This document shows positions 56,974 to 59,284 of a stretch of DNA of 64,000 bases, piece by piece. The notes beneath the pieces are model-generated. The model saw nothing but the letters and a program-made list of their open reading frames with translations. It had not been told where the DNA came from and ran no database searches. Positions within the stretch are counted from its first letter, which is position 1. Each line of letters begins with the position of its first letter. The position numbers were made by a program, and so were the translations under genes. The DNA is taken from the NCBI RefSeq assembly GCF_051903065.1, contig NZ_CP178438.1. One strand, 5' to 3'. This DNA is from Escherichia coli (GTDB taxonomy: Bacteria > Pseudomonadota > Gammaproteobacteria > Enterobacterales > Enterobacteriaceae).

Positions 56974-59284
56974 GTTATTCTCTGCATTCAGAAAAAATAA
57001 AATCTGGGATTTCAACGGCGGCATCCATCCACCGGAGATGAAAACCCAGTCCAACGGTACACCCCTGCGCCAGGTACCCCTGGCGCAGCGTTTTGTTATT
57101 CCACTGAAACAGCATATTGGCGCTGAAGGTGAGTTGTGCGTTAGCGTCGGCGATAAAGTATTGCGCGGCCAGCCGCTTACCCGTGGTCGCGGCAAAATGC
57201 TGCCTGTTCACGCGCCCACCTCGGGTACCGTTACGGCTATTGCGCCCCACTCTACGGCTCATCCTTCAGCTTTAGCTGAATTAAGCGTGATTATTGATGC
57301 CGATGGTGAAGACTGCTGGATCCCGCGAGACGGCTGGGCCGATTATCGCTCTCGCCGTCGCGAAGAGTTAATCGAGCGCATTCATCAGTTTGGTGTTGCG
57401 GGGCTGGGTGGTGCAGGATTCCCGACAGGCGTTAAATTGCAGGGCGGCGGAGATAAGATTGAGACGTTGATTATCAACGCTGCTGAGTGCGAGCCGTACA
57501 TTACCGCCGATGACCGTTTGATGCAGGATTGCGCGGCTCAGGTCGTAGAGGGTATTCGCATTCTTGCGCATATTCTGCAGCCACGCGAAATTCTTATCGG
57601 CATTGAAGATAACAAACCGCAGGCGATTTCCATGCTGCGCGCGGTGCTGGCGGACTCTCACGATATTTCTCTGCGGGTGATTCCAACCAAATATCCTTCT
57701 GGCGGTGCTAAACAATTAACCTACATTCTGACCGGGAAGCAGGTTCCACATGGCGGGCGTTCATCCGATATCGGCGTATTAATGCAAAACGTCGGCACTG
57801 CTTATGCAGTGAAACGTGCCGTTATTGATGGCGAGCCGATTACCGAGCGTGTCGTAACCCTGACTGGCGAAGCAATCGCTCGCCCGGGCAACGTCTGGGC
57901 ACGGCTGGGGACGCCAGTGCGTCATTTATTGAATGACGCCGGATTCTGCCCTTCTGCCGATCAAATGGTGATTATGGGCGGCCCGCTAATGGGCTTTACC
58001 TTGCCATGGCTGGATGTCCCGGTCGTAAAGATTACCAACTGTCTGTTGGCTCCCTCTGCCAATGAGCTTGGCGAACCACAGGAAGAACAAAGCTGCATCC
58101 GGTGTAGCGCCTGTGCTGACGCCTGCCCTGCGGATCTTTTGCCGCAACAGTTGTACTGGTTCAGCAAAGGTCAGCAACACGATAAAGCTACCACGCATAA
58201 CATTGCCGACTGCATTGAATGTGGGGCTTGCGCGTGGGTTTGCCCGAGCAATATTCCCCTGGTGCAATATTTCCGTCAGGAAAAAGCTGAAATTGCGGCT
58301 ATTCGTCAGGAAGAAAAGCGCGCCGCAGAAGCCAAAGCGCGTTTCGAAGCGCGCCAGGCTCGTCTGGAGCGCGAAAAAGCGGCTCGCCTTGAACGACATA
58401 AGAGCGCAGCCGTTCAACCTGCAGCCAAAGATAAAGATGCGATTGCTGCCGCTCTGGCGCGGGTGAAAGAGAAACAGGCCCAGGCTACACAGCCTATTGT
58501 GATTAAAGCGGGCGAACGCCCGGATAACAGTGCAATTATTGCAGCACGGGAAGCCCGTAAAGCGCAAGCCAGAGCGAAACAGGCAGAACTGCAGCAAACT
58601 AACGACGCAGCAACCGTTACTGATCCACGTAAAACTGCCGTTGAAGCCGCTATTGCCCGCGCCAAAGCGCGCAAGCTGGAACAGCAACAGGCAAATGCGG
58701 AACCAGAACAACAGGTCGATCCGCGCAAAACCGCCGTCGAAGCCGCTATTGCCCGTGCCAAAGCACGCAAGCTGGAACAGCAACAGGCTAATGCAGAGCC
58801 AGAAGAACCGGTCGATCCGCGCAAAGCCGCCGTCGAAGCCGCTATTGCCCGTGCCAAAGCGCGCAAACTGGAACAGCAACAGGCTAATGCGGAGCCAGAA
58901 GAACAGGTTGATCCGCGCAAAGCTGCCGTCGAAGCCGCTATTGCCCGCGCCAAAGCACGCAAGCTGGAACAGCAACAGGCTAATGCGGAACCAGAAGAAC
59001 AGGTCGATCCGCGCAAAGCTGCCGTCGAAGCCGCTATTACCCGTGCCAAAGCGCGCAAACTGGAACAGCAACAGGCTAATGCGGAGCCAGAAGAACAGGT
59101 TGATCCGCGCAAAGCCGCCGTCGAAGCCGCTATTGCCCGTGCCAAAGCGCGCAAACTGGAACAGCAACAGGCTAATGCGGAGCCAGAAGAACATGTTGAT
59201 CCGCGCAAAGCGGCAGTTGCCGCGGCTATTGCCCGCGTTCAGGCCAAAAAAGCCGCCCAGCAAAAGGTTGTAAACGAGGACTAA
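56966..59284 (+). CDS. rsxC: Rnf/Rsx subunit C (NADH-binding, 2x[4Fe-4S]) with a C-terminal Ala/Lys/Gln-rich repeat region
   Basis: 772 aa with two ferredoxin-type clusters ([24 protein letters not shown]) followed by six 32-aa tandem repeats. Confidence 0.95.
58622..59245 (+). repeat. tandem array of 6 near-perfect 96-bp repeats plus a degenerate partial 7th, in frame within rsxC
   Basis: Unit starts at 58622, 58718, 58814, 58910, 59006 and 59102 (gatccgcgcaaa[g/a]c[c/t]gccgtcgaagccgctattgcccg…ggaacagcaacaggctaatgcggagccagaagaacaggt[t/c]). Each unit encodes [32 protein letters not shown]. Confidence 0.95.

Follow-up and report, generated by a model that had tools for sequence, protein, structure and literature searches.

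The ms11 typing repeat of Escherichia coli lies within rsxC and probably encodes a selected motif module on the RsxC tail

The 3' end of rsxC in Escherichia coli carries a coding minisatellite, ms11, which in all probability (about 0.9) gains and loses whole repeat units and encodes a motif-bearing module, maintained by selection, on a flexible C-terminal tail of RsxC. The repeat array is a known MLVA/VNTR strain-typing locus, and its copy-number polymorphism is already known and ordinary. The new part of the present analysis is the layout of the encoded motif, its conservation across bacterial orders, and its restriction to RnfC proteins. The window referred to below is the whole stretch of 64,000 nucleotides of E. 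coli DNA that was analyzed, and all coordinates are positions in it. The gene and the parts of its 3' end are as follows.

56966 to 59284, plus strand: rsxC coding sequence (772 aa) for the NADH/FMN and 2x[4Fe-4S] subunit of Rsx, an Rnf-type complex (open reading frame, NCBIfam, Pfam, and RefSeq).
58622 to 59197, plus strand: six full tandem units of 96 bp (32 codons), aa 553–744 (Tandem Repeats Finder, unit-by-unit listing, and translations).
59198 to 59284, plus strand: seventh, diverged terminal unit of 87 bp, encoding 28 aa and then the stop codon, and forming the C-terminus of RsxC (sequence reading).
59276 to 59287, plus strand: Shine-Dalgarno-like GAGGA (59276–59280), rsxC stop codon TAA (59282–59284), and rsxD start codon ATG (59285–59287), read from the sequence.

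The gene is rsxC, which encodes subunit C of an Rnf-type ion-translocating oxidoreductase. Its product scores 871.2 bits against the RsxC equivalog family NF003454 of NCBIfam (cut-off 345), covering aa 12–570, and 594.6 bits against TIGR01945 (cut-off 245.95). Pfam places RnfC_N at residues 14–115, Complex1_51K at 139–283, SLBB at 296–344, and Fer4 at 373–430 (Fer4_7 at 376–430), so that the domain set is complete, with the RnfC N-terminal barrel-sandwich, NuoF-like FMN/NADH, SLBB, and 2x[4Fe-4S] ferredoxin domains; no Pfam domain was found over aa 445–772. The solved RnfC chains 8ahx_C, 7zc6_C, and 9eri_C match RsxC with E-values of 5e-121 to 4e-83. The operon order, taken from the open reading frames of the window and the RefSeq annotation of an identical genome, is rsxA, rsxB, rsxC, rsxD, rsxG, rsxE, and nth. 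Over 1701 bp, the window and the finished E. coli chromosome ECNB21-M121 are 100% identical; rsxC is annotated there as a 2319-bp coding sequence. GAGGA, a putative ribosome-binding site of rsxD, sits within the last rsxC codons and the rsxD reading frame begins at 59285, which gives a tight translational junction. In E. coli, the Rsx complex has been described to use NAD(P)H to reduce SoxR or ferredoxin, and its target SoxR is a DNA-bound regulator (PMC12174285).

Tandem Repeats Finder reported a single array at 58622–59235 with a period of 96, 6.4 copies, 92% matches, 0% indels, and a score of 1004, in frame 0 of the 772-aa open reading frame. This bears out the first-pass annotation, made from the letters of the window, in its description of six in-frame 96-bp repeats in the C-terminal region of rsxC, as well as in their placement downstream of the Fe-S domains, since Fer4 ends at residue 430 and the units begin at residue 553. 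The end coordinate given there, 59284, is the rsxC stop codon. Each full unit reads DPRK[T/A]AVEAAI[A/T]RAKARK, followed by a linker ending in [E/Q][Q/P/H]V. It therefore consists of an 18-aa basic motif and an acidic, proline-containing linker, which is 14 aa long in E. coli; on the consensus unit, the motif carries a net charge of +4 and the linker of -4, and the whole unit is neutral. The units had been called nearly identical, which is only roughly so, as pairs of them in the window differ at 1–12 of 96 bases. The diverged terminal unit was found in every intact allele read.

The identity with ms11 was established from the published primers (PMC8215070, PMC4644529, PMC11773471), both of which match the window exactly.

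58471 to 58490, plus strand: ms11 forward primer site, GAAACAGGCCCAGGCTACAC, found once and exactly in the window (matches expected by chance: 0).
59313 to 59332, minus strand: ms11 reverse primer site, CTGGCGCTGGTTATGGGTAT, within rsxD, a single exact match.

The predicted amplicon (58471–59332) is 862 bp long, which, on the published formula of 286 bp + 96n, corresponds to 6.0 repeats. Each of the VNTR properties tested was found for ms11: the primers flank the array, the unit is 96 bp, as in the published schemes, and copy number varies between strains. No difference exists at the DNA level between ms11 and the array in the window. The locus is labelled "ms11 (rsxC)" in a 7-locus E. coli scheme that reuses the panel of Gorgé et al. 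2008, and it has been used to type E. coli and Shigella since 2008; repeat-number polymorphism, considered probable in the first-pass annotation, thus belongs to earlier work. Published alleles range from 4.5 to 7 repeats, with null alleles in addition (Simpson index 0.68), a range that overlaps the counts in genomes given below. The typing literature consulted treats ms11 as a size marker, without discussion of the encoded motif, selection, or the distribution in other orders. Further VNTRs of E. coli that lie in frame within coding sequence, such as CVN001 in ftsK, CVN004 in tolA, and CVN014 in hemY, are likewise tandem repeats listed under protein-coding genes and serve as size markers in the same MLVA schemes; their genes and peptides differ. 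In tolA and ftsK, the repeats fall in long linkers, rich in Ala/Lys/Glu or Pro/Gln, in which changes of length are tolerated.

To count copy number, 5,424 complete E. coli genomes were sampled twice, independently. A BLAST query of the array plus its flanks gave ambiguous partial alignments for the shorter alleles, and a flank-only query was used instead. A second query, consisting of 20 consensus units, was used to rank genomes by copy number; it inflates 1-unit alleles to 98% coverage by joining 19 pieces of one unit, and alleles were checked by reading the DNA. A word-indexed protein search with the tail returned almost only fragments shorter than 520 aa and served to collect motif instances, not to census lengths. 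Genomes were found to carry 0–8 full units with a mode of 5, in agreement with the expectation that repeat number differs between strains. Five units account for 58–59% of genomes, 4 units for 19–20%, 6 units (the window and O157:H7) for 8–10%, 7 units for about 8%, and 3 units for ~3%. The extremes among the genomes listed were 0 units (n = 1), 1 unit (n = 15, including the O121:H19 lineage), and 8 units (n = 3). The 5-unit allele is that of K-12; the C600 rsxC coding sequence of 2223 bp encodes 740 aa, so the K-12 length given in the first-pass annotation proved correct and is exactly one unit shorter than that of the window. All of the O157:H7 genomes listed carry 6 units; the K-12 strains listed have 5, except for the laboratory strain OV2 with 3.

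The alleles differ by whole units. The OV2 array is the K-12 array minus units 2–3, with identical flanks and remaining units, and the GF47 array corresponds to that of O104:H4 without two internal units. What is left in the 0-unit allele of CFSAN004176 is a hybrid of unit 1 and the terminal unit. Of the 11 distinct alleles read, nine are intact open reading frames that end at the same stop codon (644–836 aa where a coding sequence is annotated); of the other two, one has a frameshift in its array and one has been cut short by a rearrangement. Some units are 99 rather than 96 bp long. Since a 96-bp unit spans 32 codons, the reading frame is kept in the alleles read, except for the one with the frameshifted array. 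Broken arrays were seen in only 2 of ~130 distinct genomes individually listed, and every intact allele read retains at least one motif. Repeat number is clearly not critical, because successful natural lineages carry only 1 unit (O121:H19) or 0.

For the analysis of selection, 34 distinct unit sequences from 11 strains were compared. Synonymous differences were frequent (pS 0.29) and nonsynonymous ones rare (pN 0.027), with an overall pN/pS of 0.094, which falls to 0.051 in the motif and rises to 0.163 in the linker; third codon positions make up 20 of the 32 polymorphic columns. The first and last units retain their own identity in every allele read. The units had been proposed to reflect recent expansion or ongoing homogenization, which fits poorly, because they differ at 1–12 of 96 bases and mostly synonymously. 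High pS relative to pN, fixed end units, and a motif common to several orders indicate instead that the units are old and maintained by purifying selection, and that a whole unit is now and then gained or lost.

Judged from the sequence comparisons, what is conserved is the 18-aa motif, common to several bacterial orders, rather than the 32-aa unit itself. Its core is A[AV]xAAIA[RK]AKAKK, the form in Enterobacterales is DPRKAAV[E/A]AAIARAKA[R/K]K, and the D-P-R-K cap and AAIAR are strictly conserved. The motif is nearly invariant in RnfC tails of Enterobacterales, Vibrio, Aeromonas, and Alteromonadales, and several gammaproteobacterial orders share it. It was present in Citrobacter, Enterobacter, Kluyvera, Klebsiella, Salmonella, Dickeya, Yersinia, Edwardsiella, and Erwinia, and also in Vibrio, Aeromonas, Pseudoalteromonas, Ferrimonas, and others. 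The linkers, of 9–90 aa, are unrelated between genera and similar within one protein. A profile search of 1.84 billion representative proteins gave only 225 matches, and 26 of the 27 listed matches of at least 450 aa show RnfC hallmarks, so that the motif appears essentially exclusive to RnfC. A 3132-aa protein (P0183) was rejected as a motif carrier; it matches profile positions 6–16 only and is an unrelated repeat protein. The motif profile had no match among PDB sequences even at E<=10.

Two further helices precede the array in the tail.

58268 to 58486, plus strand: long charged C-terminal helix after the ferredoxin domain, aa 435–507 (AlphaFold2).
58520 to 58588, plus strand: second degenerate, non-repeated basic helix, aa 519–541 (sequence; position conserved in other genera).

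AlphaFold2 predicts helix over tail residues 2–74, with a pLDDT of 92–96 for the first ~40 residues and of 66–81 thereafter, and a degenerate motif copy lies at the end of this long helix (aa 489–504). A 16-aa segment of the second helix is also found in the tails of Citrobacter, Enterobacter, Klebsiella, Salmonella, Yersinia, and Dickeya, and lies within a predicted helix at tail residues 88–116 (aa 521–549). In the AlphaFold2 model, each unit forms, with a pLDDT of ~65–85, a 24-residue helix that spans the motif and the beginning of the linker; a break of 8 residues comes next. The module had been expected to be helical or disordered, and the prediction is helical with short breaks. The single-sequence model of the tail consists of separate helices with low confidence at the breaks, and because its pTM is 0.25, it suggests no packing between unit helices. 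A folded solenoid or toroid has been suggested for the Erwinia amylovora repeat (PMC10587187); linkers that range from 9 to 90 aa between genera would argue against a fixed packing geometry.

This repeat of E. amylovora is homologous to that of E. coli; it occurs in the same gene and at the same C-terminal position, has a motif nearly identical to that of E. coli, and has been used for strain typing since 2023, with 0 to 5 copies of a 40-aa unit between strains (PMC10587187). Its unit (120 bp) contains an Ala/Pro-rich linker, AAQAAPAAADKAAPVQQPAAEQ, in contrast to the 14-aa linker of E. coli, which means that each lineage expanded and homogenized its array separately. RsxC aligns with the RnfC of Azotobacter vinelandii (8ahx chain C) up to RsxC residue 498 and 8ahx_C residue 483 of 496, where both proteins have an Ala/Lys/Glu-rich helix after the ferredoxin domain; the A. 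vinelandii protein ends at 496 aa without motif repeats. Its C-terminal helix, over 50 residues long, contacts RnfB and RnfH, and its role is described as not understood (PMC12174285). In the structurally characterized RnfC proteins of Clostridium and Acetobacterium, the tail is entirely absent.

A mechanism can be proposed from these observations. Misalignment between units, by replication slippage or unequal recombination, would add or remove whole 96-bp units, a step that we infer from the allele pattern and established knowledge of tandem repeats. The protein would thereby gain or lose copies of one module, and the modules may be arranged like beads on a flexible C-terminal tail that starts after the long RsxC helix. 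By analogy with the Azotobacter complex, in which the homologous long helix lies against RnfB, the tail would be located near RsxB. The peptide is under purifying selection, strongest in the motif, with the linkers free to change. Literature searches found no experiment or paper that assigns a function to the RnfC/RsxC tail. As to that function, we tentatively favor a docking or capture arm at the complex's cytoplasmic face, multivalent and of low affinity, with copy number tuning reach and avidity rather than switching the enzyme on or off. Its acidic partner might be a ferredoxin- or flavodoxin-type carrier, RsxB, or nucleoid-bound SoxR/DNA, which is a guess. A more specific version is possible, if doubtful: the ~20-residue basic helix could be an undescribed docking motif specific to RnfC, present in 1 to 13 copies beside RnfB, that draws a particular partner to the complex, be it an electron-carrier protein, RsxB itself, or DNA-bound SoxR, and ms11 copy number could quantitatively tune the rate of SoxR reset or ferredoxin reduction.

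Other explanations of the array have to be weighed against these. The repeats could be neutral filler: an expansion that a disordered and dispensable tail tolerates, without a function of its own and with drifting copy number. Viable, widespread lineages with anything from 0 to 8 units are consistent with this, as are the lack of a Pfam domain or PDB relative for the tail, its absence from the RnfC of Clostridium and Acetobacterium, and its shortness in Azotobacter. Nevertheless, neutral drift is unlikely given the pN/pS values (motif 0.05, linker 0.16) at a pS of 0.29, the retention of the same 18-aa motif across at least four orders despite complete linker turnover, and the persistence of at least one motif in every intact allele with so few broken arrays. 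It is also conceivable, though improbable, that the basic helices bind not a protein partner but the membrane, as amphipathic anchors, or DNA and the nucleoid, as histone-like tails. Each motif carries a net charge of +4, the tail is rich in Ala and Lys, and the Rsx target SoxR is DNA-bound. The low hydrophobic moment of the motif helices counts against membrane binding (0.19–0.25, at a mean hydrophobicity of -0.08 to -0.35, compared with a moment of 0.57 for the FtsA targeting helix); V and I are the only non-alanine hydrophobic residues of the motif, and the idea of an amphipathic membrane anchor was rejected on the calculated moment and the lack of large hydrophobic residues. Moreover, the D-P-R-K cap and AAIAR are conserved more strictly than non-specific charge binding would need, and the acidic linkers cancel the charge of the motifs.

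A contingency (phase-variable) locus, in which the array would act as a hypermutable on/off switch for RsxC or the downstream rsxD-G-E, is very improbable. The repeat is intragenic, translation of rsxD begins right at the stop codon of rsxC, and rare frameshifted or truncated alleles exist, all of which such a switch might show. However, whole-unit changes never shift the frame, because the unit lengths of 96 and 99 bp are both multiples of 3; 9 of 11 distinct alleles are in frame, no promoter-like site was found within the array, alleles are clonally stable (6 units in O157:H7 and 5 in K-12, OV2 excepted), and ms11 is an MLVA marker of moderate diversity. Least credible of all is an assembly or sequencing artefact, or an element that acts at the DNA or RNA level, such as a regulatory RNA, a promoter, or an antisense gene. 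On the minus strand, open frames of 467 aa and 264 aa do run across the array, as does one of 247 aa in another plus frame, and some database fragments have frameshifts in it; open frames of this kind are, however, expected from a stop-free repeated unit. The possibility of an artefact, which the first-pass annotation had raised, was dispelled because six units are also found in independent, finished genomes of O157:H7, the array is present in the finished ECNB21-M121 chromosome, and the locus is routinely sized by PCR. No Rfam match was obtained at E<=1, promoter and terminator scans gave nothing above chance, and the peptide is conserved while synonymous sites vary freely.

The finding as first noted matters little, as the polymorphism has long been used for typing of E. 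coli and Shigella. Intact 0-unit and 1-unit alleles, including that of the O121:H19 outbreak lineage, are flagged by the NCBI annotation pipeline as rsxC pseudogenes with "missing C-terminus", and such flags could mislead gene-presence and association studies. Whole-unit change is seen even within a laboratory lineage of K-12 (OV2), and the array also occurs in frameshifted or truncated database fragments; for these reasons, variant calls at the array need long reads. If the motif docks a partner, the natural alleles with 0 to 8 copies would provide a ready-made dosage series.

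Tandem Repeats Finder places one array in the C-terminal region of rsxC, at 58622-59235 (period 96, 6.4 copies, 92% matches, 0 indels, score 1004), which is read in frame 0 of the 772-codon ORF 56966-59284 (+). When cut in register, the repeats resolve as follows:

58622-59197, + strand, six full 32-codon units
59198-59284, + strand, a seventh, diverged unit of 87 bp that encodes 28 residues and the stop codon

The first-pass annotation had correctly described six in-frame 96-bp repeats at this end of the gene. Pairs of full units differ at 1-12 of 96 bases, and 11 of the 16 variable columns among the six are silent third positions. 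Over 1701 bp, the window matches a finished chromosome, that of E. coli ECNB21-M121, at 100% identity, and the corresponding gene there is annotated as rsxC (2319 bp); six units also occur in finished O157:H7 genomes. The array is thus real and no assembly artefact. Stop-free ORFs in another frame or on the opposite strand also span the array (57986-59389, - strand, 467 aa; 58414-59208, - strand, 264 aa; 58530-59273, + strand in another frame, 247 aa). A repeated unit that contains no stop codon is expected to produce such ORFs, and one of them may underlie the gene call for a Shigella 'hypothetical protein' (P0095).

The gene lies in the operon rsxA-B-C-D-G-E-nth, and its product scores 871 bits against the curated RsxC equivalog NF003454 (cut-off 345). 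Pfam assigns RnfC_N, a NuoF-like FMN domain, SLBB, and a 2x[4Fe-4S] ferredoxin domain to residues 14-430, and no domain to residues 445-772. The rsxC stop codon TAA (59282-59284) directly adjoins the rsxD start codon ATG (59285). Because GAGGA sits inside the final rsxC codons, the last bases of the terminal unit probably also serve as the ribosome-binding site of rsxD. The rsxD gene (equivalent to window 59285-60343) is annotated as frameshifted in strains ecMN1F (NZ_CP044410.1), where the right flank has a 1-bp length difference, and CFSAN004176, and the rsxC frame is intact in both.

Copy number was surveyed in E. coli with two queries. The first consisted of two 600-bp flanks only, so that array length is the record span minus 1200. 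It matched 5,424 genomes, of which an evenly spaced sample of 59 was tabulated.

Table. Full units in the query-1 sample (n = 59)
3 full units: 2 genomes (3%)
4 full units: 12 genomes (20%)
5 full units: 35 genomes (59%)
6 full units: 5 genomes (8.5%)
7 full units: 5 genomes (8.5%)

The second query, which joins 300-bp flanks with 20 consensus units and orders genomes strictly by copy number, gave a consistent distribution in evenly spaced rows (7 units, n = 5; 6, n = 6; 5, n = 35; 4, n = 11; 3, n = 1; 0, n = 1). At the top of its ranking, 15 genomes among the matches listed carry a single full unit, including the O121:H19 lineage, and three among the matches listed carry eight. Variation between strains, which the first-pass annotation considered probable, thus extends from 0 to 8 full units. 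The K-12 strains C600, MG1655, DH5alpha, and TG1 have five units and a 740-aa protein, one unit shorter than in the window and exactly as the first-pass annotation had it.

Individual alleles reveal that array length changes in steps of whole units. Laboratory strain OV2 (NZ_CP195020.1) lacks exactly units 2 and 3 of the K-12 array (C600), with identical flanks and remaining units; this 192-bp in-frame loss yields a 676-aa RsxC and means that array length has shifted inside a laboratory lineage. Likewise, GF47 carries the O104:H4 array without two of its internal units, and each of these two pairs shows a single event. Such length changes probably arise by slipped-strand mispairing or unequal recombination between units, as is well established for ~100-bp tandem repeats in E. 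coli. Some B2-type alleles have 99-bp units with one additional CAA (Gln) codon, QQQ to QQQQ. This is a trinucleotide slip nested within the 96-bp repeat, and it shifts amplicons of the typing locus ms11 by 3-6 bp off the 96n ladder.

Broken alleles are rare, and the alleles read stay in frame except for one frameshifted array and one rearrangement truncation. In the DNA, the eight-unit allele of LT883142 is an intact ORF of 836 aa, the one-unit O121:H19 allele is intact, and in the zero-unit allele of CFSAN004176 unit 1 and the terminal unit are fused in frame into one hybrid. RefSeq/PGAP lists rsxC of CFSAN004176 (NZ_CP014583.1) and of O121:H19 16-9255 (NZ_CP022407.1; one unit) as pseudogenes, 'incomplete; missing C-terminus'. 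Both ORFs are in frame and intact, with a normal stop codon adjoining the rsxD start, and these flags appear to be artefacts of annotating short VNTR alleles. AVS0151 (NZ_CP124372.1; about eight units, annotated 'frameshifted') has a frameshift at a unit boundary, reflecting either true disruption of the allele or an error in sequencing the repeat. In 1344_LBHALD (NZ_CP129240.1, locus 2957-3060), rsxC is cut within unit 2 and joined to the tRNA-Phe / dicD / dsbD region, and rsxD-G-E are not adjacent to it; either the chromosome was rearranged, with the break falling in or at the array, or the genome is misassembled here. Public protein sets also contain chimeric or frameshifted products of the region (P0085, P0069, P0011, P0020), such as a fusion of an Mfd-like C-terminus (PF03461) to the RsxC tail and tails running into an alternative frame, which points to errors in assembly or gene calling around this array.

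Both ms11 primers (PMC8215070, PMC4644529, PMC11773471) have exact matches in the window, at 58471-58490 and 59313-59332. The predicted amplicon of 862 bp corresponds to 6.0 repeats, given the published unit of 96 bp and offset of 286 bp. According to citing papers, the locus originates from the Shigella/E. coli panel of Gorgé et al. 2008; a later 7-locus E. coli scheme names it "ms11 (rsxC)", and one study described alleles of 4.5-7 plus nulls with a Simpson index of 0.68. Strain typing thus already uses this polymorphism as a textbook marker, and the finding as first stated is a known one. A laboratory-evolution study lists, without detail, a non-frameshift deletion in rsxC, which would be consistent with a whole-unit loss. 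In Erwinia amylovora, a homologous RsxC repeat of 40 aa occurs in 0-5 copies and has been proposed as a typing marker (PMC10587187, 2023).

Divergence was computed over 34 distinct unit sequences from 11 strains. Silent divergence is high (pS 0.29) and replacement divergence low (pN 0.027), with pN/pS of 0.094 overall, 0.051 in the motif (the first 18 residues of the unit), and 0.163 in the linker (the last 14). The unit peptide is under selection. The recent expansion proposed in the first-pass annotation fits these values poorly, and the units are not identical copies from a recent burst. In every allele read, the first unit (Thr at position 5, own codon usage) and the terminal unit also remain distinct. 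The units are therefore old and maintained by purifying selection acting on their peptide, with whole units occasionally lost or gained.

The motif is almost unchanged in RnfC tails of Citrobacter, Enterobacter, Kluyvera, Klebsiella, Salmonella, Dickeya, Yersinia, and Edwardsiella, and likewise in Pseudoalteromonas and one further gammaproteobacterium. Linkers differ wholly in length and sequence between genera and are near-identical within one protein. A 30-column motif profile matched only 225 of 1.84 billion representative proteins (E<=0.001), among them proteins of Vibrio vulnificus, Aeromonas caviae, Celerinatantimonas, Erwinia, Pseudoalteromonas, Motilimonas, and Ferrimonas, with up to 13 copies per protein. 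RnfC FMN-site and/or Fe-S signature motifs are present in 26 of the 27 listed matches of at least 450 aa; P0183 matches a profile fragment only and was rejected as an unrelated repeat protein. The core A[AV]xAAIA[RK]AKAKK is invariant, and caps are lineage-specific (e.g., DPRK, DDKK, DKKS, KNP). Conserved across orders, the motif is essentially an RnfC feature. Tail arrays may be copy-number variable in other genera too, because protein length varies widely within single 90%-identity clusters (773, 782, 825, and 1013 aa for P0105 of Erwinia sp.; 820, 840, 874, and 890 aa for P0107 of Pseudoalteromonas).

Solved RnfC chains (8ahx_C, 7zc6_C, 9eri_C) align to query residues 15-498 only, and the motif profile had no match among PDB sequences. 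The nearest structural information is indirect and concerns the C-terminal helix of A. vinelandii RnfC (8ahx_C), which according to a review (PMC12174285) is more than 50 residues long and touches RnfB and RnfH; E. coli RsxC aligns with that region up to residue 498, and the repeats start ~55 residues later. A single-sequence AlphaFold2 model of the tail predicts a long helix immediately after the ferredoxin domain (pLDDT 92-96 in the first ~40 residues, lower further on). Each unit is modelled as one 24-residue helix (pLDDT ~65-85) followed by an 8-residue break around a proline, and the pTM of 0.25 indicates no packing between units. The motif has a net charge of +4 and the linker -4. In keeping with the first-pass annotation, no paper in the searchable literature gives the RnfC/RsxC tail a function, and no description was found there of its repeated basic helix, which is strictly conserved and essentially confined to RnfC tails.

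Several explanations of the tail can be weighed. Repeats that merely fill space, with no function of their own, are unlikely given the selection on the units and the conservation of the motif across orders. Non-specific binding to DNA or membrane is somewhat more doubtful still, and a hydrophobic moment of 0.19-0.25 argues against the membrane version. A phase-variable switch is very improbable, as unit lengths are multiples of three and whole-unit changes cannot shift the frame. An element acting at the DNA or RNA level, or an artefact, has the least to recommend it: Rfam and promoter scans gave no signal, and synonymous sites vary freely.

Our preferred reading, to which we give a probability of about 0.35, is that the tail is a multivalent, low-affinity capture or docking arm. 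It would form a flexible string of basic helices that emerges near RsxB on the cytoplasmic face, and copy number would tune its reach and avidity. Copy numbers from 0 to 8 are compatible with successful lineages of E. coli.
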